UHGV virus genome: UHGV-0141615
Direction: 5' to 3' (one strand)
Length of the DNA: 39,379 bases
Source: a virus
The translations under genes and the position numbers were made by a program. Shown here piece after piece: positions 3,442 through 39,379 of this stretch (position 1 is the first letter of the stretch; every line of letters starts with the position of its first letter). The notes beneath the pieces were generated by a model, which was not told the DNA's origin, made no database searches, and worked only from the letters and a program-made list of their open reading frames with translations.

Positions 3442-3645
3442 TCACTCCTTATTGGCTCTCTTCCAGTCAATCATCTTATCGACTACCTTGGCACCAATCT
3501 GAACCACTGTGTAGGCGATAGCGGCAACGTAGAACCACTCATTAAGACTCAGCCCGAAGAACAGCCTCGCAGCGCCATCAGCCACACCTGTACCAACAAT
3601 AGGTGCAGCTTTGACTAACTCATTGTTAAAATCTAAAGACAACAT
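3442..3645 (-). CDS. 17.5: type II holin, 67 aa
   Basis: MLSLDFNNELVKAAPIVGTGVADG... matches T7 gp17.5. SD GGAGGA. Confidence 0.9.
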   Translation of the reverse strand: MLSLDFNNELVKAAPIVGTGVADGAARLFFGLSLNEWFYVAAIAYTVVQIGAKVVDKMIDWKRANKE

Positions 3646-3695
3646 GTGTCCTCCTTGTAAGAGTCCTTCCGTGGACTACACGTCTTTCCTTGGGG

Positions 3696-4217
3696 TTACT
3701 CAGTAGGCTTTTTAGGCCACTTGATGTTATCTAGTTCAGATAAATCCACGTTGTATACAGCCAGTCTGTATGCTCTCCACTCTTTAAGGATAGCCGAAAC
3801 GTCCTCACCGAGTTCTTCAAAGTCTCGATACATGCTGATTTTCTCACCAGCAGTCTTAAGTAAGTGCTCCTTAAGTGCTTGGTAGTGCAAAGGGTTTGGA
3901 ACCACTTTAGACCCATCAAATCGATATTGATTGTTTGTGTCTCGACGTAAACCATCAGGCACTTCTTCTAGCTCAACAACTCCAGCCATACCATTCGGAC
4001 ACAGTTCGTTCACGTCTTTCTCACACTGAAATACCGTACCATCTTGACTATATACAACCTTGAACGTATTCTCTTGGAACATCTCCCGAACGTCATACCA
4101 ATCACGCCCTTGGTCATCCATTTCGAACCCTACTCCATTCTCAATGAGGTCCGCATAATCAGGTCTATCGGTAACTGTCGGTCGATATTGTCGTGGATTC
4201 TTAAAGTGCTGTAACAT
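3696..4217 (-). CDS. Tail fibre assembly protein, a Tfa-like chaperone (lambda Tfa, Mu U and T4 gp38 N-domain family), 173 aa. T7 has no such gene.
   Basis: Inserted between gene 17 and gene 17.5, which are adjacent in T7. The C-terminus ILKEWRAYRLAVYNVDLSELDNIKWPKKP matches the conserved Tfa motif EWxxYRxxLxxVDxSxxPDIxWPxxP (lambda Tfa ends [25 protein letters not shown]). It is translationally coupled to gene 17 (AGGAGACATTATG, 9 nt after the gene 17 stop). Confidence 0.8.
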   Translation of the reverse strand: MLQHFKNPRQYRPTVTDRPDYADLIENGVGFEMDDQGRDWYDVREMFQENTFKVVYSQDGTVFQCEKDVNELCPNGMAGVVELEEVPDGLRRDTNNQYRFDGSKVVPNPLHYQALKEHLLKTAGEKISMYRDFEELGEDVSAILKEWRAYRLAVYNVDLSELDNIKWPKKPTE

Positions 4218-4226
4218 AATGTCTCC

Positions 4227-5966
4227 TTAGTAAATGTTATAGGCTGAGCCATTGGGTCTTACATACTGCATTACTCGCCACTGGACACCATCTGGAAGGT
4301 CATCAGAGTTAAAGTTCACTACACCAGTAACAACTTTACCACCTCCATCACTAACTCCCTTACCTCGCCATAATGTGGATGTCTGTAGAGAACCCATGTT
4401 GATTTGCTTTACTGTGTTCTCTTCAATCCACTGTTTAATCCACTTGCCACCCCATACGGAACCTGTTAAGTTACCATCTGACGCAATCAACCACCCCTTA
4501 TTGCTAGACAATTGTCCTTGAATAGTAATTGTAAGGGTGTGCTCACTACCACGATCCCCCTTGAGTTGGATAATACCCTCATGGAAGTTGCTGTCGCCCT
4601 TGGATACCATACCGATGGAGAATGCCGCCGGATAACCATTCGAGCGTCTACCATATTGTTTAATCATAGGGTAGTATACGTTACCGTCCTGATTTCCTGG
4701 GAGGCTTTGAGAGTAAGGGGCATTGTTGTTCAACTGGTTTGCTAACGCTCCTGCCCCATAAGTTGACTCAGTGTAGAATCTCTCGTCAGTCCTAATATAC
4801 TTAGAGACTCGAAGGTACCCATCCATAGAGACGTTCTGGTAGAATCGAGAGTCATGGTGAGAGTGGAACCCCCCATAGAAGTCATGACGACCATGACCAT
4901 TGGAGCGACCATCAGGCCACGTAGAAGGGTCTGTATTTGTAAACACATAGTAGTCCATGCGTTTTGGACCAGCCTGAATCCACTGTTCCCATACGGTCTC
5001 CTTAGAGTCCTGTCCACGCCACTGGTTCCACACTTGGTCAACTGGTTTAGTATCCGCACCTTTAGCGTCATTGTGGATCGTTAAAGAACGAGAGCCTACC
5101 TTACCTTTAAAGTAGACATCAGTAGACTCAACCCTGTCAATCGTACCAGCCAGTGCGTTCCAGTTACCCAACTTATCTACCTCTGTCTTTGCGCGGTCAG
5201 CTTCACTCTTTGCGCTATTAGCATGAGTCAAAGCGTTAGTCTCAGAGGTCTTAGCGTTAGTCTCAGAGGTCTTAGCGTTAACCTCAGAATTTCTCGCAGC
5301 AGTCTGTGAGTTACCCGCTTGTGTCTTGAACTGTTCGGCCTCATTGCGGAACTGTAGAGCTTCGTTTCGGAATCTCTCGGACTCGTTACGTTTAGTTGTA
5401 GAGATTCCGGCCTGTTCCTTAGAGGTGTTCTTGAACTGCTCAGCTTCGTCACGATACTGCTTAGCTTTATTCTGCGCATCCCAAGCGTTCTGGTTCATGG
5501 CCTTAAGTTGACCAAAAGGAACAGCGTCTCGGTCATCCACAGCGTTCGCTAGGTTCACAATTCGACGACCACGCGCATCCAAGTGACCATCGTTATTGAC
5601 ACCGATAGTATCAGCAGTAAGGTCACGGGCCTCTTCCGCTACGTGCATCGTTTGAATCTGAGCAACGTTAAGGTCATATGCACGGAGGATTGAGCCGTCC
5701 GTAAAGTCAACCAAGCGGTCGGTCGTGGATGTTACTCGCCGTAACTCGATGGTCGTGTAGCCATCGGCTGTACCCCAAGCCTTGGTCAGTGAGATGGTAG
5801 TACGCGTAGCAAAGCGATAGTCTGTATTAAGTGTAAGGACCTTACGGTCTACGCCGATAAGAGTCACCACTACGAACTTACGGGCTAGATACTCAAACGG
5901 GATGTTAAAATCACGAGTTGAGCCATCTAACGGGTAAGTCAAAACGGTTTTAATTACGTTAGCCAT
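4227..5966 (-). CDS. 17: Tail fibre protein, 579 aa, chimeric. The N-terminal tail-attachment domain and coiled-coil shaft are T7 gp17-like up to about aa 290. The C-terminal half of about 290 aa is unrelated to T7 gp17 and looks like a side-tail-fibre tip.
   Basis: MANVIKTVLTYPLDGSTRDFNIPFEYLARKFVV... is collinear with T7 gp17 through ...LAGTIDRVESTDVYFKG. From there to the end (including GHGRHDFYGGFHSHHDSRFY) there is no resemblance to the T7 gp17 tip (553 aa). Confidence 0.9.
   Translation of the reverse strand: MANVIKTVLTYPLDGSTRDFNIPFEYLARKFVVVTLIGVDRKVLTLNTDYRFATRTTISLTKAWGTADGYTTIELRRVTSTTDRLVDFTDGSILRAYDLNVAQIQTMHVAEEARDLTADTIGVNNDGHLDARGRRIVNLANAVDDRDAVPFGQLKAMNQNAWDAQNKAKQYRDEAEQFKNTSKEQAGISTTKRNESERFRNEALQFRNEAEQFKTQAGNSQTAARNSEVNAKTSETNAKTSETNALTHANSAKSEADRAKTEVDKLGNWNALAGTIDRVESTDVYFKGKVGSRSLTIHNDAKGADTKPVDQVWNQWRGQDSKETVWEQWIQAGPKRMDYYVFTNTDPSTWPDGRSNGHGRHDFYGGFHSHHDSRFYQNVSMDGYLRVSKYIRTDERFYTESTYGAGALANQLNNNAPYSQSLPGNQDGNVYYPMIKQYGRRSNGYPAAFSIGMVSKGDSNFHEGIIQLKGDRGSEHTLTITIQGQLSSNKGWLIASDGNLTGSVWGGKWIKQWIEENTVKQINMGSLQTSTLWRGKGVSDGGGKVVTGVVNFNSDDLPDGVQWRVMQYVRPNGSAYNIY
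5228..5290 (-). repeat. Perfect 21-bp tandem duplication (GCGTTAGTCTCAGAGGTCTTA, two copies plus a partial) inside the gene 17 shaft, encoding NAKTSET-NAKTSET-NA
   Basis: Direct reading of 5236-5283. The adjacent FRNEALQFRNEAEQFK repeats are also visible. Confidence 0.8.
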
Positions 5967-6017: not shown

Positions 6018-6040
6018 TCTCCCTATAGTGAGTCGTATTA
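6018..6040 (-). promoter_or_regulatory. T7 RNAP promoter phi17
   Basis: Exact reverse complement of TAATACGACTCACTATAGGGAGA. +1 at 6023. It overlaps the 3' end of gene 16 as in T7. Confidence 0.9.
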
Positions 6041-9000: not shown

Positions 9001-9994
9001 TACCAGCACTCAGTTTAGCACCTAGGCCAGCTTCGGCAGCGAGTGAGTCATTCTCAAAGTTCTCGTTAGCCAGCTTAATGAGGTCGTCAAGATTCTCAGG
9101 GGAACCACCAGTTACCACGTTGATGTACGCAGGGTTCTTAACCTCGGTTCGAATCTTCTCTAACTCTTCTGGAGTCCAGATGTGAGAGTTCCAGCTAGTC
9201 GGCGTAATGGTGTCCTTAAACACATCAAAACCATTATCGAGGCGACCAGCACGGAAAGCCATCCCAGCGACTGAGTTGGAGAGTTCAGCTTCGGCAGCAT
9301 TTTTGAATCCGAAGAAGGTTGAACGACTATTGTACTCATCAAGTGTTTCTCCGTGGGTCTCCCAAAAGTCCTTGGCGAATGGTTTCTCCGGAGCCTCCTG
9401 TTCGATACCCTTAACGTCAAAACTTGTGGACTCAGGAAGTTCCTGTGTTACTTTCTGCTTGTGACCAATTCCAGCCAATCCTACCTCAGCCGGAATACCT
9501 TTACCCTTTGGGGTTATGCCACCAAAAGTTTCCAACTGTCCAGCCATAGGTGACTTAGCGACATCCAGAAGGTTACGCATGTAGTTCCGTCCTTCCTCAG
9601 AGATGGACGCGAAGTCTCCCTTAGAGTATGCCTCAAGTTGTGGATTACCCAAGCGTCCCTCGCCTTGGTTGTACGCAAGGGCAGCTTTGAGTTCGTCACC
9701 ATCAAATTTACCTACCAGACCTGCAAGGTGCTTAGCGGCAGCGTTGATGGCTAACTCGGGGTTCAGTCGGTCATCGTCTGGGCCATCGGTAACTCGCAGA
9801 CCAAGGGCCTTAGCGGTTGCCTTGGTGAACTGCATCATTCCTAATGGTCCAGTCTTAGATTTTGCTGTAGGTACAAAGCGTGATTCCGTCCAAGCGACTT
9901 TACGTAAAAGGTCATAAGAGACCCCGTTGGCATCAGCCGCCTTTTGGAACAGACCATCATAATCACTTGGTACGTTCTTATCGTACTTATCCAT
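6038..9994 (-). CDS. 16: Internal virion protein D, 1318 aa, with an N-terminal lytic transglycosylase domain. It is an ejectosome component.
   Basis: Same length as T7 gp16. It has an SLT-like N-terminus (...ESRFVPTAKSKTGPLGMMQF...). Confidence 0.95.
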   Translation of the reverse strand: MDKYDKNVPSDYDGLFQKAADANGVSYDLLRKVAWTESRFVPTAKSKTGPLGMMQFTKATAKALGLRVTDGPDDDRLNPELAINAAAKHLAGLVGKFDGDELKAALAYNQGEGRLGNPQLEAYSKGDFASISEEGRNYMRNLLDVAKSPMAGQLETFGGITPKGKGIPAEVGLAGIGHKQKVTQELPESTSFDVKGIEQEAPEKPFAKDFWETHGETLDEYNSRSTFFGFKNAAEAELSNSVAGMAFRAGRLDNGFDVFKDTITPTSWNSHIWTPEELEKIRTEVKNPAYINVVTGGSPENLDDLIKLANENFENDSLAAEAGLGAKLSAGIIGAGVDPLSYVPMVGVTGKGFKLVNKALVVGAESAALNVASEGLRTSVAGGDTDYAGAALGGFVFGAGMSAISDAVAAGLKRNKPEAEFDNEFIGPMMRMEARETARNANSADLSRMNTENMKFEGEHNGVPYEDLPTERGAVVLHDGSVLSASNPINPKTLQEFSEVDPEKAARGIKLAGFTEIGLKTLGSDDADIRRVAIDLVRSPTGMQSGASGKFGATASDIHERLHGTDQRTYNGLYKAMSDAMKDPEFSTGGAKMSREEARYTIYRRAALAIERPELQRALTPSERTVMDIIKRHFDTKRELMENPAIFGNTKAVSIFPESRHKGTYVPHVYDRHAKALMIQRYGAEGLQEGIARSWMNSYISRPEVKARVDEMLKEVHGVKEVTPEMVEKYAMDKAYGISHSDQFTNSSIIEENIEGLVGIENNSFLEARNLFDSDLSITMPDGQQFSVNDLRDFDMFRIMPAYDRRVNGDIAIMGSTGKTTKELKDEILALKAKAEGDGKKTGEVHALMDTVKILTGRARRNQDTVWETSLRSINDLGFFAKNAYMGAQNLTEIAGMIATGNVRALGHGIPILRDTLYKSKPVSAKELKELHASLFGKEVDQLIRPKRADIVQRLREATDTGPAVANIVGTLKYSTQELAARSPWTKLLNGTTNYLLDAARQGMLGDVISATLTGKTTRWEKEGFLRGASVTPEQMAGIKSLIKEHMVRGEDGKFTVKDKQAFSMDPRAMDLWRLADKVADEAMLRPHKVSLQDSHAFGALGKMVMQFKSFTIKSLNSKFLRTFYDGYKNNRAIDAALTGIISMGLAGGYYAMAAHVKAYGMPKEKRKEYLERALDPTMIAHASLSRSSQLGAPLAMADLVGGVLGFESSKMARSTILPKDTMKERDPNKPYTSREVMGAMGSNLLEQMPSAGFVANVGATLMNAAGVVNSPNKATEQDFMTGLMNSTKELVPNDPLTQQLVIKIYEANGVNLRERRK

Positions 9995-10020
9995 TTAGGG
10001 CCTCCTTATGTAGCCTTTAG

Positions 10021-12252
10021 TTACTCCTTACGTCCGTAGATGAACTTAGGAGTCTGTTTACGTTTCTCTCGTACTCGTTTAGCAGCAGCTTCACGAGCTT
10101 TCTTAGCGGCAACTATAGGTGCTCGCTTGTTAACATCAGCAAGAGCCTTCTCTTCGAGTTTCTTCTGGTTCTCACTCCAGACCTTCGAGAGTAACTCTTT
10201 GTCGTATCGGACTCGGACTTGACCAGTAGTGTCCATAAGGTAAATGGAGTCACCTTGAGAATACATGGTCAGTTGCTTGTTGGTTATCCAGCGGTTGCTC
10301 GCAATGATTCCCTTACGTGCTTCCTCCAGAATATCACGACCTTGCTCCCACGATTTCGGGTCAGAGTTGACTTGCATCATGTTCTTCGGAATTACACCAA
10401 CGGCATCACCATCAACATCGTCACCAGTGAACGTGTAGGTAGATTCCTTAAGGAACTTGGTCATCTGCTCCATAGCCATACTTTCGTTCCCTGAGCGATA
10501 CTTAACGGAGTCATAAATCTTACGTGCGGATTCGCGCAGTGACGCTGGCATACGGGCAATCTCAGGAGCTTTAGACGCATTCAATGCAGACTCGAATGCT
10601 TTATCATCCTCAAAGCGTTGCTCTTTGGACCGCTTGACAGTCAGTCGGTCGGCATCAAGAATAACCTGAGGGTCAATACCTTGCTTGTCCATCATGTCCA
10701 TCGTCAGGAATAGCTCAGCTTGGTCTGGGTATAGCGCAGCAATCAACTGAGGGTCGGCATTACGGATTCTACGTAGGGCATCCAGAGCTGGGGTTCGTTC
10801 TGGCAACTTACCGTTAATAACAGCGGCAGACCACTCTTGACCAGCGTCAGTCACCATAGTTCCGATTGCTGTACGGAATGCTCCGTCCTTAGAGTCAGCT
10901 TGAAGGTATTTCAACTTCATCATGTCCTTGGTGCTATCTGGGATGTCCATGCGGTCAATCTCCGCGAGCTTCTTATTGGCGTAGTTAACCATATCACTAT
11001 GTTTGAACTCACCAGTGTTCTCGTTGACTGGCATATCCTTAAAGTCCGTTGATACCCACTCGCCGTTGATTCGCTTCTGGAACTGCTTGTCGATTACGTC
11101 AAGTTTGTTCATAGACTTCATTGAGTCATCCAGAGCTTTTGCTTGAGCTTTCGTCCATGCGTTCATCTGATTCTGAACTTGCTCCTGTGCTGAGATTAAC
11201 CACTCACGTTGTGGTGTCATCTGCTCATCAGGTTGAACTTTATCGAGTTCAGCCTTGATACCTTGAAGCATCTCCCACGCAGTACGAGGGTCCTCTTGGT
11301 TCAGCGCGGAGTTAATCTTCAAGCGATACTGCTCGTTCAGCTTGGCGTCATTCTCAAACTGAGAACGTTGTGCTGTCACCATTAGAGCATTCCACTGTTC
11401 CTCACCCATCAACTCTCGGTAAGTCGTAGTGGCCCCGTTGAGTGTTACCTTCTTATCGCCAACGCGCATCAGGAAGTCAGCACCACCAGCACGGCTAGAA
11501 GCATCACTGAACGCTTGGCTTATAAGCTGTATGGCTTGAGCATCAGATGGGATTGCCCCAATAACCAGACCATTGTCGATGTATTTCTCAAAGAAGTCAG
11601 CAGAGTCTGGACGACGCAGCATGTCAGGGTCTTGAAGGACACCGTTTAGTTCCACTCGGCTGTTCATGATGGCACCCTTCTGAGCTTGCTGGCTCAAGAA
11701 GTTATCATGCGCACCATACAGCGAGATGTTACGCTCAGTGATGTCCCCGTTGAAACCACGCTGATAATCAACGTCCTCAGGGTCAATACCGAACTGCTCA
11801 GCGTATGCCTTGGCGCCCTCTTGGAGACGACTATGACGATACTCTTCCATCTCTTCACGAGTACGGAAGACACCCTCTTTGACCTTCTGCATAACGTCAT
11901 CGTCCACAAGGTACGCAGCGTTACGACCAGTCTTGACTCGTAGTGCTTCCATAGCGTATGGGTCATCCTGATACAGAAGGGTCCCGTTGTTGAGAGCTTC
12001 TCGGCGTTGCTCAGGAGTCAGCTTACGGATAATCTCGTTAGAGCGTTCGTCAGCTAGGTCGCGTGCTCGTTGTTCCTTAGCGGTATACATATCGGCACCA
12101 GCTTTAGCGAACCGGCCAATGGTGTCCAATAGGCTGGACTTTTGCTGCTCAGCCTGAGTGGTTGCTGCACGATAGCCCATACCGCCAGTGCCACCACGTA
12201 ACCGAGAGAGTCCCGGTTGTGCCGCTTGAAGGGCAGATTCAATTTTACTCAT
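10021..12252 (-). CDS. 15: Internal virion protein C, 743 aa
   Basis: T7 gp15-like, 747 aa in T7. Position is conserved. Confidence 0.95.
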   Translation of the reverse strand: MSKIESALQAAQPGLSRLRGGTGGMGYRAATTQAEQQKSSLLDTIGRFAKAGADMYTAKEQRARDLADERSNEIIRKLTPEQRREALNNGTLLYQDDPYAMEALRVKTGRNAAYLVDDDVMQKVKEGVFRTREEMEEYRHSRLQEGAKAYAEQFGIDPEDVDYQRGFNGDITERNISLYGAHDNFLSQQAQKGAIMNSRVELNGVLQDPDMLRRPDSADFFEKYIDNGLVIGAIPSDAQAIQLISQAFSDASSRAGGADFLMRVGDKKVTLNGATTTYRELMGEEQWNALMVTAQRSQFENDAKLNEQYRLKINSALNQEDPRTAWEMLQGIKAELDKVQPDEQMTPQREWLISAQEQVQNQMNAWTKAQAKALDDSMKSMNKLDVIDKQFQKRINGEWVSTDFKDMPVNENTGEFKHSDMVNYANKKLAEIDRMDIPDSTKDMMKLKYLQADSKDGAFRTAIGTMVTDAGQEWSAAVINGKLPERTPALDALRRIRNADPQLIAALYPDQAELFLTMDMMDKQGIDPQVILDADRLTVKRSKEQRFEDDKAFESALNASKAPEIARMPASLRESARKIYDSVKYRSGNESMAMEQMTKFLKESTYTFTGDDVDGDAVGVIPKNMMQVNSDPKSWEQGRDILEEARKGIIASNRWITNKQLTMYSQGDSIYLMDTTGQVRVRYDKELLSKVWSENQKKLEEKALADVNKRAPIVAAKKAREAAAKRVREKRKQTPKFIYGRKE

Positions 12253-16410: not shown

Positions 16411-17606
16411 TTATTGCTCAGCGGTGGCAGCAGCCAACTCAGCTTCCTTTCGGGCCTTGTTAGCAGCGCGAGTGCGTGCAGCCTTCTGTGCTGGCGTTAA
16501 GGTTTCTTCTGTTGAAGTAACACTCACCTCTTCGGGACTAGCAGCGACCGTTGAGGTCACTCCCAGCATTACCTCGCTTTGAAAACCACTGCACCAGCAG
16601 CTTCTGGGCGCAGACCACCGTGACCCATTGCGTACTTAGCGATAATCTGGTCCGCTTGGAAGTTAGCACGGCGAGCACGCTCCAGAGCCAAGTCACGCAG
16701 CTTAACAGTACCTACCGCAGAGCGGTGCATGAACAGGCCGATAACGTTGGCCTTAGCAACCTTGGTAGTACCACCTTCACTAGCGGCAGGGAAGGCGTGC
16801 TTCTGATTAGTGGTATCCGCGCGAGAGGTTCCAGCGCCACCAGCAGTGAGGTGAGGAACTTCTACAACCTCAAAGCCCATAACGTTACGGATAGAACCCT
16901 TCTCAGGGTCAATCAGCGCAGCGTAGTTTGCCGCGTTCGGCATCAGTGCTGCCAGAATCGCAGAGTAGCTATCTGGGTCGCAGTAGAACACACGGTCAGA
17001 AGCCGGAACGTAGTTCTTGGTCAGAGCTGCACGAGCCTTGGTCAGTGCTGCAATAATCTCCTTACCCAGCGCAACTTGGTCGGTAAGTGCCTCCTTGTCC
17101 TGAGTGGTCGCAATTACAGTTGCGGCACCTAAGCCCTCAATGTTCTCGTTAATGGTGCTCGTCAAGTTACACAGGCCAGCAATCTCTGCCAGAACCGCAC
17201 CATCCGCAGCCATCGCCAGAGATTCACCTAACTGAGAGGTGTACTCAGAGCGAACGTCATAGTGGTTCATCGCGTCCTCAATATCGTAAATCAGAACGTC
17301 AGCAGTCAGGAGACCATCAATGGTGATTACCTTCTCGGTGTGTTTGATGCCTTTTCGTTTATCGTCGAGGTTCTCACCAGGTGCCAGATACGCTGCCTGA
17401 GTGCGACCCAGAACAGGGAACTGAGCTGATTTACCGCTGGAGATGGAACGGACCATGTGGCGAGAAGTGGTCACGGAGGTACGAGCGAACGCAGTCAGGA
17501 CTTCACCGCCAAATACCTTCAAGAACAACGCCAGTTTATCGGAACCAGTGCTTACACCTTTACCTTGGTTAGTACCAATTTGCTGTCCACCAGTCATGTT
17601 AGCCAT
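16411..17606 (-). CDS. 10B: Minor capsid protein 10B, made by a -1 ribosomal frameshift at GGTTTTC (16581-16587) near the 3' end of 10A. The 52-aa extension ends at the TAA at 16411-16413.
   Basis: Slippery heptamer G GTT TTC is conserved. The -1 frame reads QSEVMLGVTSTVAASPEE...AELAAATAEQ*, matching the T7 10B tail. Confidence 0.75.
16569..17606 (-). CDS. 10A: Major capsid protein 10A, 345 aa
   Basis: MANMTGGQQIGTNQGKG... The classic gene 10 RBS AAGAAGGAGATACATATATG is present. The track ORF extends 10 codons upstream, but the SD-supported ATG is at 17606. Confidence 0.95.
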   Translation of the reverse strand: MANMTGGQQIGTNQGKGVSTGSDKLALFLKVFGGEVLTAFARTSVTTSRHMVRSISSGKSAQFPVLGRTQAAYLAPGENLDDKRKGIKHTEKVITIDGLLTADVLIYDIEDAMNHYDVRSEYTSQLGESLAMAADGAVLAEIAGLCNLTSTINENIEGLGAATVIATTQDKEALTDQVALGKEIIAALTKARAALTKNYVPASDRVFYCDPDSYSAILAALMPNAANYAALIDPEKGSIRNVMGFEVVEVPHLTAGGAGTSRADTTNQKHAFPAASEGGTTKVAKANVIGLFMHRSAVGTVKLRDLALERARRANFQADQIIAKYAMGHGGLRPEAAGAVVFKAR

Positions 17607-18841: not shown

Positions 18842-20449
18842 AATGCCCGGCTGTAAACCTACGGAATCAGCGGCAGCAGCCATAGCCTCAGGTGACGCTG
18901 TAGCTTGTGCAGCCATACCTTGAGCCAGCGCAGCAGCACCATTATCCATACCCATCTGCATAGACTGTTGGGCCATCTTCTGTTGCTTCTGTTCTTCGGT
19001 AAGAAGGATACCAGAAGTGTCAATACCGATAGCGTTGGCAATTCGCAACTTAATCATCGCAAGGTTAATATCAGGGTCATCCCGCATAGGAGCCAGAGCA
19101 GCCCACGCAGTGACACAGCGTTCCAGCTTATCAAGGTCTTGCCCTCGACCAATTGCTTCCAGACCCGTACTAATGGTTGGCTCTACGGCTTCCTTAGGTA
19201 ACTCAGGAATCTGTTGCGTGGCTTGTAGTTGCTTCAAGAGCACTCGTACCAGAGGCAATTGTAATTCTTGAGAAAGGATAGAGTAGACACCACCTAAAGT
19301 ATCTTCAAGTTCAGAAGCGACATACCGAATCTCTTCGGCGGTCACACGTTCACCTGTGCGCTGAACCGCAGAGTTCAACATAAAGGCAAACGAAAGGCGA
19401 GCCTCAATAGCGTCACTGACAGCCTTGGCTACGGTAAAGTCTGCTTGCTTCTCCAGTTGAAGGAACGAGATGTCTTCTGGACGACCAGTAACGAAGTCAC
19501 CAGTCTGAGCTTTGGTCAGTCGGCGTGGCTGGGTAATACCAGCAGGATTCACTAAGCCGATGACCTTAGAGCTAATCATGGACATCTTGACGATAGCCTC
19601 TTGGAGATTCTCAAGGGACCGTAAGTCACCTAAGTATTCCTCAATGTACGAACGACCGTAGGATTCGCCGTCCAGACGAACCATTCGAATCGGGATGTAT
19701 GGGCAAGCCTCTTTAGGGTAAGACCCATCGGAGCCTTGTATCCCCATGCCTTCAACCTCTTCGTAGCGGAGATATTCGTCTGACTCTTCGTCCAAGTAGA
19801 TGTGAGTATACACATCAATGGTCTCATCAGGTTTCTTCTCACCGCCTTGACCTTCTACAGCCTTACGGATGTCCTCAGGGAGAGCACCGAAAGCTATCTG
19901 GTCACGAGTCACCATTTGCAGAACGTTGCCGAATGCGTCTCGTTGGACCACATAAGAAGACAATCGGTACAGCTTCATGGGATTGTAGTTTGACCCTTCT
20001 GGTTCCGGTAGGTACAGCAGAACGTTACCAGATACGACTAACTGCTTGAGAGCCTCAAAGAGAGTCACGCGGTAGCTGTTAGACTCAATGTAGTTCATGA
20101 TGATACGCTCTACCATTGAGAGACCCTCATCGACCTTAGCGAGTCCATCGGGGTCGCTCAGTAACTGCTTTGCTTCATATTCAGATATAGTAAGTCGCAT
20201 CCAAGTCTGCATAGGGAACAGAGCCAGCATGAGCTTAGAGGCTAGATTGTTTAGACCACGAGCGCCCACAGCTTGCCACGGTGTTTGATAATCTGTAGAG
20301 GCGTTATCGGAATCCTTAGGGAACAATGAGGGGATGGTATATTGAGCGCAATTCTGAGCGCGTGTCTCATAAGGAGCGCGGTCGTTCTTCAATCGGTCAT
20401 AAACGGACTTTGCGCCTTCCTCGGCTAGACCTGTACGCTTCTCAGCCAT
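18839..20449 (-). CDS. 8: Head-to-tail connector (portal) protein, 536 aa
   Basis: Same length as T7 gp8. MAEKRTGLAEEGAKSVYDRLKNDRAPYE... Confidence 0.95.
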   Translation of the reverse strand: MAEKRTGLAEEGAKSVYDRLKNDRAPYETRAQNCAQYTIPSLFPKDSDNASTDYQTPWQAVGARGLNNLASKLMLALFPMQTWMRLTISEYEAKQLLSDPDGLAKVDEGLSMVERIIMNYIESNSYRVTLFEALKQLVVSGNVLLYLPEPEGSNYNPMKLYRLSSYVVQRDAFGNVLQMVTRDQIAFGALPEDIRKAVEGQGGEKKPDETIDVYTHIYLDEESDEYLRYEEVEGMGIQGSDGSYPKEACPYIPIRMVRLDGESYGRSYIEEYLGDLRSLENLQEAIVKMSMISSKVIGLVNPAGITQPRRLTKAQTGDFVTGRPEDISFLQLEKQADFTVAKAVSDAIEARLSFAFMLNSAVQRTGERVTAEEIRYVASELEDTLGGVYSILSQELQLPLVRVLLKQLQATQQIPELPKEAVEPTISTGLEAIGRGQDLDKLERCVTAWAALAPMRDDPDINLAMIKLRIANAIGIDTSGILLTEEQKQQKMAQQSMQMGMDNGAAALAQGMAAQATASPEAMAAAADSVGLQPGI

Positions 20450-20463
20450 GTGTCACCTCCTGT

Positions 20464-25635: not shown

Positions 25636-26072
25636 TAGAGTTCTCCCTTAAGATACCTTATGGCATTCTCCAACCTATCTGTAGAATCGAAGAATTTACC
25701 TAAACCAATATTGCAGTGCCAGCATAATAGCCCACGAACTTTCAGAGTTACATGGTCGTGGTCAATACAGGCTACCTTATGTCTCTCGGATGAGTGTGCC
25801 ATTATAGCGTCTCCACATATCTTACACTTCCCTCCTTGCGAGTTCCACAATTCCTCATACTGCTCTACTGTCAGGCCATACTTCTTGATTTGAGATTTAC
25901 GAGAACTCCACCTGTGGGCCTCTCGCTTCTCAGCATCATGCTTATGGTATCTCGCATTGTTATCTTTACGGATGCACTCTTTACACCAAGTTCTAAGACC
26001 GTCCTTCATGCGGGAAGCCTTGCCGAACTCGGAGAGCGGCTTTCCGTTCCCACATTTAGAACAAATCTTCAT
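25635..26072 (-). CDS. 4.7: gp4.7-position protein, 145 aa, with CxxC...CxxC plus a DHDH...N zinc-finger nuclease-like motif (Endo VII / HNH-like)
   Basis: MKICSKCGNGKPLS...CKICGD...CIDHDHVTLKVRGLLCWHCNIGLGKF. SD GGAGGTGG precedes the ATG at 26072. The stop overlaps the gene 5 ATG (TAATG). Confidence 0.8.
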   Translation of the reverse strand: MKICSKCGNGKPLSEFGKASRMKDGLRTWCKECIRKDNNARYHKHDAEKREAHRWSSRKSQIKKYGLTVEQYEELWNSQGGKCKICGDAIMAHSSERHKVACIDHDHVTLKVRGLLCWHCNIGLGKFFDSTDRLENAIRYLKGEL

Positions 26073-26075
26073 GCC

Positions 26076-26098
26076 ACCTCCTATAGTGAGTCGAATAG
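26076..26098 (-). promoter_or_regulatory. T7 RNAP promoter phi4.7 (…ATTCGACTCACTATAGGAGG), class II
   Basis: Reverse complement read directly. +1 at 26081. Confidence 0.85.
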
Positions 26099-29248: not shown

Positions 29249-29703
29249 TATTTCTTTCCTCCCTTCGATTGTTTCAGCTTGTCAAATGGCACCTCCTTTT
29301 TGGGTTCTTTGAGCCATTCTACAGGAATTAATTTGTCAGCAAACAGAATACCGTGCTTCTCACACCATTCTCCATAACTGGTCGGAGACCCTTTGTATAG
29401 CTTGGTGCGCGAACTTGAGAACACAAGACGGATGTCCAGTTCAGGAAACTGTTCGCGAATCAGTAAGTGTTTCTTTCGGTCGTCACTCTCCCATAAACCT
29501 TTGGTTTCAATAAAGATTCCGTTAGGCAGCAGGAAGTCTGGAGTATACATATGGTTGCTCGCAGGGACAACGTAAGGGATTTTCCACAGTTCATAATCGA
29601 ACTTAATGCCCTTACCCTCTAGCTGCTTAGAGACCTTATCTTCTAGGCCGGAACGGAATGTCCCGACCTTTCGGATACCACGCGCAGCGTATGCGCCAGC
29701 CAC
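29248..29703 (-). CDS. 3: Endonuclease I, a Holliday junction resolvase, 151 aa
   Basis: T7 gp3-like. Its start abuts the gene 2.5 stop. Confidence 0.9.
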   Translation of the reverse strand: MAGAYAARGIRKVGTFRSGLEDKVSKQLEGKGIKFDYELWKIPYVVPASNHMYTPDFLLPNGIFIETKGLWESDDRKKHLLIREQFPELDIRLVFSSSRTKLYKGSPTSYGEWCEKHGILFADKLIPVEWLKEPKKEVPFDKLKQSKGGKK

Positions 29704-33036: not shown

Positions 33037-33306
33037 CTTCCAGTCCTTCAAATCACTATGCACCTTGCGTAACCATTCGGCCTGTGCGTTGCAGCGTACA
33101 TCTTCATCATCCTGTTCGAACCGCTTGGATGTCAACTCTACGCCATTCCGCAAGACCACTCGAAGAGTCTCACCAGCTACCCATCGGCGCTGTGCGTAGT
33201 CTTCACGTCGATAAGTCTCAGTGACCACATCGACGGCATGGTCTTCTCTGAGGCGCTTGATAGCATCTTTGTATGCTGCCAGATTGCCACTATACAGACG
33301 TCCCAT
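33034..33306 (-). CDS. 1.2: gp1.2, 90 aa. In T7 it inhibits the host dGTP triphosphohydrolase and is a target of F-plasmid PifA exclusion. The ends are conserved but the central region is divergent.
   Basis: MGRLYSGNLAA...HSDLKDWK. The first 11 and last 8 residues match T7 gp1.2. The core (YKDAIKRLREDHAVDVVTETYRREDYAQRRWVAGE...) does not. SD GGAGGG lies before the ATG at 33306. Confidence 0.8.
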   Translation of the reverse strand: MGRLYSGNLAAYKDAIKRLREDHAVDVVTETYRREDYAQRRWVAGETLRVVLRNGVELTSKRFEQDDEDVRCNAQAEWLRKVHSDLKDWK

Positions 33307-33624: not shown

Positions 33625-36276
33625 TTACGCGAACGCAAAGTCTGACTTAAGGATGTCTTGGAGATTCAAGTTACCCTTAGCAGGAAGTGCCGGCATTTTA
33701 TCCAATTGAGACTCGTGCAACTGGTCAGCGAACTGGTCGTAGAAGTCAGCCAGTACATCACAAGACTCATAGGTGTCCACCATGGTTTCGCGCACAGCTT
33801 TGAACAAGTTGGCAGCGTCAGCCGGAATGGTCCCGAAGGAGTCGTGAATCAATGCAAAAGACTCGATTCCATACTTCTCGTGCGCCCATACTACAGTCTT
33901 ACGCAGGTGGCTACCGTCTTGGCTGTGTACAAAGTTAGGAGCGATACCAGACTCCTGTTTGTGTGCATCAATCTCGCTATCTTTGTTGGTGTTAATGGTT
34001 GGCTGTAGACGGAACTGACCTAGGAACATCAGGTTCAAGCGAGTCTGAATAGGCTTCTTGTATTCCTGCCACACAGGGAAGCCATCAGGAGTTACCCAAT
34101 GCACAGCGCAACGCTTACGAAGAATCTCTCCAGTCTTCTTATCTTTGACATCAGCAGCCAGCAGCTTAGCGGCAGACTTAAGCCAGTTCATAGCTTCCAC
34201 AGCGGCTACCACCGTCACGCTCACAGCTTCCCAAATCAGTTTCGCCATGTATCCAGCAGCCTGATTCGGTTGAGTGAACATCAGACCTTTACCGGAATCA
34301 ATAGCTGGCTGAATGGTATCTTCCAGCACTTGTTGACGGAATCCGAACTCTTTTGACCCGTAAGCCAGCGTCATAACTGAACGCTTAGTCACGCTGCGAG
34401 TAACACCGTAAGCCAACCACTGACCAGCCAGCGCCTTGGTGCCCAGCTTGACTTTCTCAGAGATTTCACCAGTGTTTTCATCAGTCACGGTAACTACTTC
34501 GTTGTCTGTTCCGTTGATTACGTCTTCTTGCAGAATCACGTTGACTTTCTTAGCAACAATCCCGTAGATGTCCTGAACTGTTGCACTAGGCAGCAGGTTA
34601 ACAGCAAGACCACCTACCTCATCGAGTAGCATCGCGGAGAAGTGCTGAATGCCAGAGCAAGACCCATCGAACGCCAGAGGCAGTGAGCAGTTGTAACTTA
34701 ATCCGTGGTGCTGTACCCCAGCGTACTCAAAGCAGAACGCGAGGAAGCAGAATGGGGAATCCTGCTCAGCCCACCAAGTGTTCTCAAGTGGAGACTTAGC
34801 GCAAGCCATGATGTTCTCGTGGTTGTCCTCAATGAACTTGATGCGCTCAGGGAACGGAACCTTATCAACGCCTGCACAGTTTGCACCGTGGATTTTCAAC
34901 CAGTAATAACCCTCCTTGCCGATTGGTTTACCTTTCGCCAGAGTCAGCAGACCCTTGGTCATATCGTTACCTTGCGGGTTGAACATTGACACAGCGTAAA
35001 CACGACCGCGCCAGTCCATGTTGTAAGGGAACCAGATGGCCTTATGGTTAGCGAACTTGTTAGCTTGCTCAAGCATGGACTCAAGGCTGATACGGCGAGA
35101 CTTGCGAGCCTTGTCCTTGCGATACACAGCGGCAGCAGCACGCTTCCAAGCGGTGAGTGACTCAGGATTCGTGTCGATGTCTTCCTGTTTCATCGGGAGT
35201 TCTTCACGCTCAATCGCTGGGATGTCCTCTACAGGGCAATGCTTCCACTTGGTGATTACGTTGGCGACCGCTAGGACTTTCTTGTTGATTTTCCATGCGG
35301 TGTTTTGCGCAATGTTAATCGCTTTGTACACCTCAGGCATGCAAACATCTTCGTAGCGCATCAGTGCTTTCTTGCTGTGGGTACGTACAAGCGCCAGAGG
35401 GCGACGACCGTTAGCCCAATAGCCACCACCAGTAATACCAGTCCACGGCTTAGGAGGTACTACACAAGGTTGGAACATTGGGGAAATGCCAGCAAGCGCA
35501 CCTGCACGGGTTGCGATAGCCTCAGCGTATTCCGGTGTCAGCTCGATAGTCTCAGAGTCTTGACCAACTACACCAGCATTTTGACGATGCAAGCTAACCA
35601 TTCCGGTTGACTCAATGAGCATCTCAATGCAGCGCACACCCACGTGAATGGAGTCTTCCTTATGCCACGAAGACCACGCCTCGCCACCCAGTAGACCCTT
35701 AGAGAGCATGTCAGCCTCGACAACTTGCATGAATGCTTTCTTGTAGACGTGACCTACACGCTTGTTAAGTTGTTCCTCAACGTTTTTCTTGAAGTGCTTA
35801 GCTTCAAGGTCACGGATTCGACCAAAGCGCGCCTCGTCCTCAATGGCTCGACCGATTGCGCTGGCTACTGCCTGAACGGTTGTATTGTCTGCACTGGTTA
35901 GACAAGCCAGAGTGTTCTTAATGGTGATGTACGCTACAGCTTCCGGCTTGATTTCTTGCAGGAACTGGAAGGCAGTCGGGCGCTTGCCTCGCTTAGCTTT
36001 CACTTCCTCAAACCAATCGTTGATGCGTGCAATCATTTTAGGGAGCAGGGTAGTAATCAGAGGCTTAGCGGCAGCGTTATCTGCGACCTCACCAGCTTTA
36101 AGCTGACGCTCAAACATCTTGCGGAAGCGTGCTTCACCCATTTCGTAAGACTCATGCTCAAGGGCCAACTGTTCGCGAGCTAAACGCTCACCGTAATGGT
36201 CAGCCAGAGTGTTGAACGGAATAGCAGCCAGTTCGATGTCAGAGAAGTCGTTCTTAGCGATGTTAATCGTGTTCAT
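33625..36276 (-). CDS. 1: T7-type single-subunit DNA-dependent RNA polymerase, 883 aa
   Basis: MNTINIAKNDFSDIELAAIPFNTLADHYGERLAREQL...DFAFA has the same length as T7 RNAP. About 15 substitutions were seen by eye, roughly 98 percent identity. Confidence 0.98.
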   Translation of the reverse strand: MNTINIAKNDFSDIELAAIPFNTLADHYGERLAREQLALEHESYEMGEARFRKMFERQLKAGEVADNAAAKPLITTLLPKMIARINDWFEEVKAKRGKRPTAFQFLQEIKPEAVAYITIKNTLACLTSADNTTVQAVASAIGRAIEDEARFGRIRDLEAKHFKKNVEEQLNKRVGHVYKKAFMQVVEADMLSKGLLGGEAWSSWHKEDSIHVGVRCIEMLIESTGMVSLHRQNAGVVGQDSETIELTPEYAEAIATRAGALAGISPMFQPCVVPPKPWTGITGGGYWANGRRPLALVRTHSKKALMRYEDVCMPEVYKAINIAQNTAWKINKKVLAVANVITKWKHCPVEDIPAIEREELPMKQEDIDTNPESLTAWKRAAAAVYRKDKARKSRRISLESMLEQANKFANHKAIWFPYNMDWRGRVYAVSMFNPQGNDMTKGLLTLAKGKPIGKEGYYWLKIHGANCAGVDKVPFPERIKFIEDNHENIMACAKSPLENTWWAEQDSPFCFLAFCFEYAGVQHHGLSYNCSLPLAFDGSCSGIQHFSAMLLDEVGGLAVNLLPSATVQDIYGIVAKKVNVILQEDVINGTDNEVVTVTDENTGEISEKVKLGTKALAGQWLAYGVTRSVTKRSVMTLAYGSKEFGFRQQVLEDTIQPAIDSGKGLMFTQPNQAAGYMAKLIWEAVSVTVVAAVEAMNWLKSAAKLLAADVKDKKTGEILRKRCAVHWVTPDGFPVWQEYKKPIQTRLNLMFLGQFRLQPTINTNKDSEIDAHKQESGIAPNFVHSQDGSHLRKTVVWAHEKYGIESFALIHDSFGTIPADAANLFKAVRETMVDTYESCDVLADFYDQFADQLHESQLDKMPALPAKGNLNLQDILKSDFAFA

Positions 36277-36282
36277 TTAGTA

Positions 36283-36345
36283 CCTCTTCCGGTTAGTAAA
36301 TCGTATCTATTCAGGCCACCCGCAGATGACCTGTAAGATAAGACT
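36283..36345 (-). promoter_or_regulatory. RNase III hairpin R1 between genes 0.7 and 1
   Basis: GATAGTCTTATCTTACAGGTCATCTGCGGGTGGCCTGAATAGATACGATTTACTAAC, essentially the T7 R1. Confidence 0.6.
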
Positions 36346-39214: not shown

Positions 39215-39379
39215 ATGGATGAAGATTATCTCTTTATAGGTAACAACAAGGCATCTTTAGGAATAGGCTTTAGGATGGTCTTTAGGTTATCTTTAAGATA
39301 GGGATTGACTGAATGGGTCTTTAAGTGTAGTCTTTAGGCTGTAGACGGTAGGAGGTGACTTTAGGAGGTGACTTTAGGA
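39215..39379. repeat. Left-end array of CCTAAAG-type repeats (CTTTAGG on this strand, at least 10 copies in different contexts), ending in the 13-bp tandem units that continue at window position 1
   Basis: Direct reading gives CTTTATAGG, CTTTAGGAAT, CTTTAGGATGG, CTTTAGGTTATCTTTAAG..., GTGACTTTAGGAGGTGACTTTAGGA. Confidence 0.7.

Follow-up and report, generated by a model that had tools for sequence, protein, structure and literature searches.

A mosaic tail fibre in a T7-like phage genome, probably ending in a Mu-type tip that is co-inherited with a Mu-type assembly gene

The tail fibre gene in the virus genome UHGV-0141615, whose full 39,379 nucleotides we refer to as the window, very probably encodes a fibre made of four parts of different descent in a T7-like genome, with a distal tip of the Mu S' type that is co-inherited with a gene for a Mu gpU-type tail fibre assembly protein (Tfa). 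The four parts would be a T7-type attachment domain (aa 1-150), a non-T7 shaft (aa 150-270), a middle block of the type found in phages EG1 and P483 (aa ~277-496) and the Mu S'-type tip (aa ~497-579). A first-pass annotation of the same sequence had already described the fibre as a mosaic relative to T7, and in this it was right; our account of how the mosaic is put together differs from the one it gave. Sequence comparison indicates a natural genome of the genus Teseptimavirus, probably of gut metagenome origin and approximately 94% identical to T7 (86-95% throughout).

All the features described here lie on the minus strand. Gene 17, which encodes the 579-aa tail fibre protein gp17 (4227..5966 including the stop codon), was recognized as an open reading frame with a match to PF03906. 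It is followed by a 173-aa reading frame (3696..4217), here called gene 17.2, with matches to PF02413, phrog_136 and 5YVQ_B, then by an intergenic region (3646..3695) and the flanking backbone gene 17.5 (3442..3645), an open reading frame for a class II holin; PF10746 matches gene 17.5 in the metagenome contig L023, a contig 100% identical to the window. Upstream, a T7-type class III promoter at 6018..6040 matches the T7 promoter consensus at 23/23 positions and occupies the position that phi17 has in T7; it drives gene 17, the Tfa gene and the genes downstream. Both the Phage_T7_tail N-terminus of its product and its place between genes 16 and 17.5 behind phi17 make gene 17 a member of the T7-group gp17 genes. 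In T7 genes 17 and 17.5 have no gene between them, which confirms the earlier statement that the 173-aa frame separating them in the window is absent from T7. Nucleotide homology to T7 restarts at 3692, 4 nt beyond the Tfa stop codon, and the blastn alignment continues from 3692 to 80 at 93.8% identity. The GC content of the tip and Tfa region is 43.5-43.8%, compared with 48.5% for the whole genome.

Only 9 nt separate gene 17 from the Tfa frame, and the stop codon of gene 17 (TAA, 4227-4229) overlaps the Shine-Dalgarno sequence of the Tfa gene (AAGGAG, 4223..4228, read from the sequence) within the string TAAGGAG, with a spacing of 5 nt from the Shine-Dalgarno sequence to the ATG. A scan of this junction for a promoter or terminator gave nothing exceeding the shuffled expectation. 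The two genes had been called translationally coupled; the short gap and the stop codon inside the Shine-Dalgarno sequence agree with that description, and coupling itself is what we infer from them.

The tail-attachment domain of gp17 (aa 1-162; 5481..5966) is of the T7 type, matching PF03906 (Phage_T7_tail) with 237.8 bits, and its residues 1-150 are 93-100% identical to those of T7, EG1, N30 and the sibling metagenome contig L009. The coiled-coil shaft that follows (aa ~163-269; 5160..5480) was assigned to a non-T7 allele from its identity profile: residues 150-265 are 26-46% identical to T7 and 93-100% identical to L009, and the siblings from metagenomes have the same allele. Nucleotide homology to T7 within gene 17 ends at 5439, near codon 176. 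The first-pass annotation had taken the fibre to be collinear with T7 up to about residue 290. Residues 1-290 of the two proteins do align without gaps, but T7-like identity (93-100%) is confined to aa 1-150 and the ungapped alignment hides the break. At 579 aa, against 553 aa for T7 gp17, the fibre is 26 aa longer, in line with the earlier estimate of about 25. Four metagenome contigs, 36-39.5 kb in length, encode exactly this gene 17 protein. NCBIfam holds a relevant model for neither gp17 nor the 173-aa frame.

At residues 270-292 of gp17 (5091..5159) lies a hinge, NALAGTIDRVESTDVYFKGKVGS, which is conserved in T7 (also at aa 270-292), EG1 and CICC 80001. The exchange of the middle block has its left breakpoint within this hinge, since homology to L009 stops at 5137 and homology to EG1 starts at 5212. 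The middle block (aa ~277-496; 4479..5137) was assigned to the EG1/P483 type by its DNA identity of 88% to EG1 (5212 to 4470) and 86% to P483 (5228 to 4467). Over gp17 aa ~252-499 the protein identity to EG1 and P483 is 80-100%, while aa 281-390 are just 6-16% identical to the sibling L009. The region of high identity to EG1 and P483 includes the Gly/His-rich segment, which sits within the middle block; the string reported for it previously, GHGRHDFYGGFHSHHDSRFY, was found at aa 358-377. The block that bears this segment thus belongs to the T7-group gp17 repertoire, and the C-terminal half of the fibre, proposed at first to be foreign to that group, does align to T7-group gp17 in part, through aa ~277-496.

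Searched alone, the middle block matches no Pfam family, and its sole match among the PHROGs is phrog_2901 (function unknown). Residues 406-547 of gp17 align to T7 gp17 360-485, covering the pyramid domain and linker, with 28% identity and a pairwise E of 1e-6, which suggests that the distal middle block and the T7 pyramid domain are remotely homologous. A stretch of approximately 110 residues at aa ~294-405, additional to what T7 has, shows no T7 similarity. The earlier claim that everything beyond the shaft lacks similarity to the T7 tip therefore stands for aa ~294-405 and for the last ~60 aa and fails for aa 406-547. A homologue search with the C-terminal half of gp17 returned 2 matches, and the AF2 monomer model of aa 270-579, built from a 3-sequence alignment, has a mean pLDDT of 31; the fibre is an obligate trimer. 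We also considered the HSHH of the Gly/His-rich segment as an HxH metal site (compare T4 gp37 and gp12) and judged the case weak; the motif is not kept in the 38%-identical CICC 80001 homologue (GNHTFYGDVLF), which counts against the idea.

The linker motif WLIASDGNLTGSVWGGKWIKQWIEENT (aa ~491-520; 4407..4496) is conserved across T7-group fibres, its DGNxxGxxWGGKW pattern matching T7 gp17 434-476 (4A0T, 7BOZ) with E=1e-4. The right breakpoint falls within it: homology to EG1 stops at 4470 and homology to L009 restarts at 4478. Beyond it, the distal tip (aa 521-579; 4230..4406), which ends in QWRVMQYVRPNGSAYNIY, was assigned to the Mu S' type by its match to 8JU3_A. Residues 519-577 correspond to the C-terminus of Mu S' (8JU3_A 426-484) with E=1e-5 for the single sequence and E=3e-9 for the profile, giving the fibre a tip homologous to those of Mu S/S'. 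The tip also matches the C-terminus of phrog_5454 (E=2.4e-13), and it lies at the C-terminus in 56/56 representative matches. BLASTP and phmmer alignments of gp17 to T7 end at T7 aa ~483-485, and the T7-type C-terminal tip (T7 aa 465-553, 4A0T) is missing; in its place stand ~60 terminal residues with a match to Mu S'. The description of a side-tail-fibre-like tip can be kept for this extreme tip only, and the tip type occurs on lambda-Stf-type and on P2/Mu-type fibres as well. Its dN/dS is ~0.5, from small counts.

The 173-aa frame encodes a true Tfa of the Mu type; the first-pass annotation had already proposed a Tfa-family chaperone from a C-terminus that reads EWRAYRLAVYNVDLSELDNIKWPKKPTE. 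Pfam Caudo_TAP (PF02413) matches aa 113-171 with 34.1 bits, above the cutoff of 22.1; phrog_136 matches across aa 1-172 (E=6e-34); and Mu gpU (5YVQ_B) matches over the full length (E=1e-10), the phmmer alignment pairing residues 3-171 with gpU 2-174. The AF2 model of the protein (pLDDT 80.3) places strands within aa 9-107, one helix at 109-135 and another at 141-155. It thus predicts the two-domain build of TfaMu, with an N-domain rich in beta structure (aa ~1-108) ahead of a conserved pair of C-terminal helices (aa 109-155). In a Foldseek search of the PDB with this model, 5YVQ_B was the sole significant match (prob 1.00, TM 0.55, rmsd 10 A); the fold match is modest. The dN/dS of the gene relative to its siblings is 0.13-0.14.

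The gene lies directly downstream of its presumed cognate fibre gene and in the same operon. When we compared fibre-Tfa pairs, co-variation with Tfa was confined to the final ~60-80 residues of the fibre (rho 0.78, Mantel p ~0.0005), with rho of 0.16 for the N-domain, -0.23 for the shaft and 0.25 for the middle block; these statistics come from 11 phylogenetically related pairs. Homology, synteny and co-variation together suggest that this Tfa pairs with this tip, and that gp17 aa ~497-579 and the Tfa frame (~0.78 kb, 4478 to 3693) form a co-inherited module. Since the match of the tip is to the G(-) fibre, Mu S', and that of the Tfa to the G(+) chaperone, Mu U, we use "Mu-type" for homology at the family level and not for orthology with one Mu pair.

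Two sibling contigs, L009 and L014, are informative about the history of the locus. Their tip and Tfa are 93-96% identical to the window at the nucleotide level, and they differ from it only across 5137 to 4478, the stretch that is 86-88% EG1/P483-like, which implies at least two nested exchanges. The tip-Tfa module would then circulate as a unit within Studiervirinae, and all that separates the lineage of the window from its nearest siblings would be a middle block exchanged later by homologous recombination, with both breakpoints in motifs conserved among T7-group fibres. The first-pass annotation preferred one capture of a ~1.4-kb cassette, comprising gp17 290-579 and the chaperone gene, from the side-tail-fibre locus of a siphovirus or myovirus. 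Compared with T7 there is indeed one contiguous non-homologous interval (window 5438..3693, T7 35152..36296), and the tip type is shared with fibres of the lambda-Stf and P2/Mu types. That interval, however, splits into blocks with different closest relatives: 5212 to 4470 is 88% identical to EG1, which is T7-like and without Tfa, and 4478 to 3693 is 93-96% identical to L009, whose middle block, of the Gp34_trimer type, differs. Tfa, moreover, co-varies with the last 60-80 aa only, and its nearest relatives are all T7-like (47-51% identity in isolates, 60-97% in metagenomes), the best from non-T7 phages being below 40%. These comparisons contradict a single capture, which we consider very improbable. 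Fibre swaps in T7 are a common engineering target, and a synthetic swap in a laboratory T7 had been left open, with nothing beyond the modular look of the locus in its favor. It is now effectively excluded. The backbone is 5-14% off T7 throughout, genes 2.8, 5.3 and 7.7 are missing from it, and its 1.2 and 4.7 regions are alternative ones; exact proteins recur on several independent metagenome contigs, and an independent ENA assembly contains the same sequence at 100% identity; several metagenome samples together have the Tfa cluster on at least 17 contigs, and the divergence looks natural; and the junctions fall in conserved motifs with no scars, restriction sites or linkers.

In Mu, the N-domain of Tfa binds the fibre tip and the conserved C-domain drives trimerisation (PMC9608196). 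By homology to the Mu fibre-Tfa system, phi17 would drive transcription of both gene 17 and the Tfa gene, translation of the second would follow directly on that of the first, the variable N-domain of Tfa would bind the emerging fibre C-termini, and the conserved C-terminal helices would align three chains, so that trimerisation would run from the C-terminus to the N-terminus. The chaperone may remain attached to the tip, in a 3:3 complex. The module of tip and Tfa would stand in for the self-folding tip domain of T7 and, with the middle block, would set a receptor specificity different from that of T7, which we regard as a reasonable prediction.

Two further readings concern the Tfa protein. 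That the 173-aa frame is a decaying or dispensable passenger beside a fibre that folds alone would agree with the EG1 and P483 fibres, which have the same middle block and work without Tfa, and with N30-type phages, which have at this place just a 125-aa frame weakly like the Tfa N-domain. We give this very little credence, as the full-length frame is kept at 47-97% identity in the same place across three genera and many metagenomes, always adjoins the same tip type, and combines a dN/dS of 0.14 with a strong Shine-Dalgarno sequence and an intact two-domain predicted model. The other reading is compatible with that of a co-inherited tip and Tfa and extends it: Tfa may, as in Mu, remain on the tip of the mature fibre, form or contribute to the receptor-binding surface and help set the host range. 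Tfa proteins of Mu and Ur-lambda are present in mature virions and Mu Tfa helps to recognize the receptor (PMC9608196), AF-multimer predicts a stable fibre-Tfa hexamer for the Teseptimavirus Bas103 (PMC11990801), and the post-linker tip of the window, just ~60 aa, is small for a stand-alone receptor-binding domain. On the other hand, purifying selection is stronger on Tfa (dN/dS 0.14) than on the tip (~0.5, small counts), the opposite of what would be expected of the main specificity determinant, and gp17.2 is not among the virion proteins reported in the Kvp1 paper. Retention is a tentative extension that we consider less likely than not. More speculative still, and doubtful in our view, is a picture in which Tfa serves as a separable (co-)adhesin on the six short fibres and the EG1-type middle block as a second and independent glycan-binding domain, the allele being directed at a receptor unseen for cultured T7-like phages. 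If true, the fibre would be a three-way combinatorial host-range device of middle block, tip and retained chaperone.

The locus is a clean natural example of how T7-group fibres are assembled from four or more interchangeable modules. Crossovers fall in the conserved hinge (NALAGxIDxV) and in the conserved linker (DGNxxGxxWGG), and Tfa travels with the last ~80 fibre residues only. These crossovers offer rational cut sites for the design of T7 fibre chimeras, in which a Mu-type tip must move together with its chaperone. The importance of the locus is mostly for annotation and phage engineering, and it reveals no new kind of system.

Among known systems, Mu S/S' with U/U' (5YVQ, 8JU3) has both partners homologous to the window pair and the chaperone gene directly downstream of the fibre gene. 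The long fibre of the myovirus Mu attaches to a baseplate, whereas the module in the window sits at the end of a short T7 podovirus fibre whose N-terminus is of the PF03906 family; the window is also without the invertible G segment and alternative tip-chaperone pair of Mu, and identity to Mu is low. T7 gp17 (4A0T, 7BOZ) shares the N-terminal domain (93-100% identical), the hinge and the pre-tip linker with the window, and remotely the pyramid, but its shaft allele differs, its tip domain (aa 465-553) is replaced in the window by the ~60-aa Mu-type tip, and it needs no separate chaperone gene. The Escherichia phages EG1 (Teseptimavirus) and P483 (Berlinvirus) have the middle block in common with the window; beyond the linker their tip is of the T7 type (43-53% identical to T7 439-553), and neither has a Tfa gene.

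The closest match in organization is to T7-like phages that carry both gp17 and a gp17.2 Tfa. The first-pass annotation stated that such chaperones do not normally partner podovirus T7 fibres, a view contradicted by the gp17-Tfa-holin order, which recurs in 15 or more records of cultured T7-like phages; the 10 of them that were inspected span three Studiervirinae genera. This synteny is found in Kvp1, SPLA4, LL2, Seera, Leclercia 10164-302, Yanou, Bas103, PGX1 and ESh2 and in all metagenomic relatives. The full order of the window (16, phi17, 17, Tfa, 17.5 holin, 18) recurs in Kvp1 (FJ194439; host Kluyvera), LL2 and EmilieLinder/Bas103 (Escherichia), Yanou (Cedecea), SPLA4 (Salmonella), Seera (Serratia) and 10164-302 (Leclercia). 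These phages and the window share the linker DGNxxGxxWGG, the tip pattern QWRVMQYVRxNGxxFNIY and a Tfa length of 172-175 aa. Identity of the window to the isolates is 47-51% for Tfa and 54-66% for the tip; the middle block (18-25%) and the shaft (27-49%) are unrelated, and the INPHARED release of August 2025 contains no cultured phage with the allele of the window. A 14-sequence alignment with 30 invariant columns places the window in the gp17 plus gp17.2 Tfa class of Kvp1, LL2 and Bas103. The downstream Tfa of Kvp1 (gene 17.2) has stood in its annotation beside gp17 since 2008, and the gp17 of Bas103 was described with a "Mu-like" Tfa in 2025 (PMC11990801). With the gp17-Tfa arrangement already known in other T7-like phages, the window is an ordinary new example of it.

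The window is a nearly complete T7-like phage genome on the minus strand, in which the tail fibre gene 17 (4227..5966, minus strand, 579 aa) is preceded by a phi17 promoter at 6018-6040 that matches T7 exactly, and is followed by a 173-aa ORF (3696..4217, minus strand) and next by gene 17.5 for the class II holin (3442..3645, minus strand). Gene 17 ends in AAC ATT TAC TAA. Because this stop codon lies inside the Shine-Dalgarno sequence TAAGGAG, 5 nt before the ATG of the ORF, and because the gap between the two genes is 9 nt and our scan of it found no promoter-like or terminator-like signals, their close coupling is plausible.

The first-pass annotation had taken this ORF for a Tfa-type chaperone gene, and our comparisons bear this out. 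The ORF scores 34.1 bits against Pfam Caudo_TAP (cutoff 22.1), matches phrog_136 ("tail fiber assembly protein") over its full length at E=6e-34 and can be aligned along its whole length to Mu gpU, which is chain B of 5YVQ, the Mu fibre-chaperone complex (E=1e-10). In its AF2 model (pLDDT 80.3) the N-domain is rich in beta strands and is followed by two long helices at the C-terminal end, and a fold search of the PDB with this model returned 5YVQ_B as the sole significant match. The dN/dS against sibling genomes is 0.13-0.14. Sequence and model together identify the product as a genuine Mu-type tail fibre assembly protein (Tfa).

The fibre itself had been described as a T7 stem joined to a foreign tip that was captured together with the chaperone gene in a single 1.4-kb event, but the alignments resolve gp17 into a mosaic of four parts rather than two. 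Residues 1-150 are 93-100% identical to T7, to the Escherichia phages EG1 and N30 and to the sibling metagenome genome L009. The shaft (aa 150-265) is only 26-46% identical to T7 and 93-100% identical to L009; the middle block (aa 270-495) is 80-100% identical to EG1 and P483, with L009 at 6-16% across aa 281-390; and the tip (aa 500-579) is 86-93% identical to L009, 40-76% to Kvp1, Yanou and LL2 and <30% to EG1. At the DNA level, homology to T7 ends at 5439 and restarts at 3692, 4 nt beyond the Tfa stop codon, while EG1 matches over 5212->4470 (88%) and P483 over 5228->4467 (86%). L009 and a further sibling (L014) share 93-95% identity with the window over 8000->5137 and 4478->2000 and diverge only between these two stretches. 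The EG1 and P483 fibres continue past the common block with a T7-type tip (43-53% identical to T7 aa 439-553), and no gene was found between 17 and 17.5 in either phage. A single capture is thus contradicted by a middle block like that of EG1 and P483, where there is no Tfa, next to a tip and Tfa like those of the siblings. The three distal modules, namely the shaft, the middle block and the tip (alone or accompanied by a Tfa), are thus combined differently in different natural genomes.

Both breakpoints of the middle-block exchange lie within motifs that T7-group fibres have in common: NALAGTIDRVE..YFKG, a hinge at aa 270-290, and DGNLTGSVWGGKW, a linker at aa ~497-510 that corresponds to T7 gp17 434-476. 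The claim that everything beyond the stem lacks similarity to the T7 tip holds for aa ~294-405 and the last ~60 aa, the only parts without detectable T7 similarity, and fails for aa 406-547, which can be aligned to the pyramid domain and linker of T7 (aa 360-485; 28% identical residues, pairwise E=1e-6). The block also carries a Gly/His-rich segment, GHGRHDFYGGFHSHHDSRFY (4836-4895, aa 358-377), whose HxH-like spacing recalls the metal-binding sites of the T4 gp37 and gp12 fibres; across aa 361-390 conservation is 100% in EG1 and 96% in P483, but the CICC 80001 homologue, which is more distant, does not conserve the segment. In place of the EG1-type block of the window, the sibling lineage L009-L014 (L009 2279-3991) has a middle block with a T4 Gp34_trimer domain (PF21446, 51 bits, aa 253-342). 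Its shaft, tip and Tfa are >90% identical to those of the window, and the two lineages form a natural isogenic pair for probing middle-block function. The analysis also yields a precise map of fibre module boundaries and crossover motifs.

Several comparisons indicate that the tip and its chaperone are a single module. The final ~60 residues of gp17 are homologous to the C-terminal end of S', the fibre of Mu in its G(-) orientation (8JU3_A 426-484), with E=1e-5 as a single sequence and E=3e-9 with a 14-sequence profile. Among 11 T7-like fibre/Tfa pairs, which are mutually related so that the correlation is support short of proof, the tip (aa 521-579) and the N-domain of the Tfa vary together in pairwise identity (Spearman 0.78, Mantel p ~0.0005), and in the same pairs no correlation was found for the fibre N-domain, shaft or middle block (0.16, -0.23 and 0.25). 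GC content is 43.5-43.8% in tip and Tfa, 47.3% in the middle block and 48.5% in the genome. We searched 1.84 billion representatives exhaustively and found the tip in 56 clusters, in every case at the very C-terminal end of the protein; among the carriers are fibres of T7 length, of lambda-Stf type (PF08400) and of P2/Mu type (PF12571 together with fibre repeats) and fibres that bear gp37_trimer. Because lambda-Stf-type and P2/Mu-type fibres are among these carriers, "side-tail-fibre-like" is apt for ~80 residues, not for the entire 290-579.

An engineered fibre swap, also raised earlier, can be dismissed because the backbone is natural, being ~94% identical to T7, phiA1122 and YpP-R over 25 kb and collinear with T7 at 86-95% identity, because identical gp17 and Tfa proteins occur in public metagenome assemblies on 36-39.5 kb contigs, and because the Tfa 90% cluster spans at least 17 contigs; one ENA contig is 100% identical to the window across 6 kb. 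T7 genes 2.8, 5.3 and 7.7 (annotated in the T7 record as endonuclease, hypothetical and HNH endonuclease) are absent (window 29680-29699, 23477 and 20450-20454 against T7 9861-10277, 16469-16833 and 19844-20239), and the gene 1.2 (33052-33268) and 4.7 (25647-26077) regions are alternative, non-homologous replacements. Because bases 1-26 and 39354-39379 are identical, and both T7 ends overlap in 3-213 (213..3 matches the T7 left end, 1-222, and the right end is already matched at 80), the window looks like a terminally redundant genome that was closed into a circle on assembly, its terminal repeat being collapsed.

The earlier observation is largely correct, except that a Tfa beside a T7-type fibre is no rarity. 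In the phage collection, the nearest relatives of this Tfa are without exception from T7-like podophages, namely Kvp1 gene 17.2 (51%), SPLA4, ESh2, LL2, Bas103, Yanou, Seera, Leclercia 10164-302, ESh6, ESh10 and PGX1; these cover Teseptimavirus, Berlinvirus and Teetrevirus, every one with the order gp17-Tfa-holin, and the best non-T7 phage Tfa has <40% identity. The Kvp1 GenBank record names 17.2 a putative tail fibre assembly protein, and the 2008 Kvp1 paper counts 17-17.2 among the variable regions (PMC2579914). The metagenomic Tfa relatives (60-97% identity) all follow the C-terminal end of a gp17 and precede a holin gene of T7 type. Since identity to the cultured phages of the August 2025 collection reaches at most 51% for Tfa and 66% for the tip, we place the fibre in a known T7-like class, of which it is a new allele. 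In Shigella phage ESh2 (UNVERIFIED ON528716, 2992-3597) the Tfa ORF extends to 201 aa (172-175 aa elsewhere) and ends in a basic tail entering the intergenic region, probably because the stop codon was lost or because this unannotated record contains a sequencing error. N30 (MH717098, 2807-3184), and likewise CQ615, Pila and AV103, has a T7-length gp17 (553 aa) and a different 125-aa "hypothetical protein" before holin 17.5. This protein weakly matches phrog_136 positions 28-125 of 178, part of the Tfa N-domain (E=8.4e-5), stopping before the C-terminal positions 126-178; the same hotspot may thus carry a chaperone-like gene that is truncated or has diverged.

In Mu, Tfa binds the fibre tip through its variable N-domain, mediates trimerisation through its conserved C-terminal helices and is retained in the virion (PMC9608196). 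By this homology, the Tfa of the window would most likely capture the C-termini of three nascent gp17 chains, start trimer folding from the distal end and possibly stay on as a 3:3 cap. The native T7 tip domain folds unaided; a Mu-type tip in its place would need its chaperone too, which would explain why tip and Tfa travel together. By analogy with relatives the receptor is likely LPS or an O-antigen glycan; Bas102-104 are reported to require the O16 O-antigen (PMC11990801).
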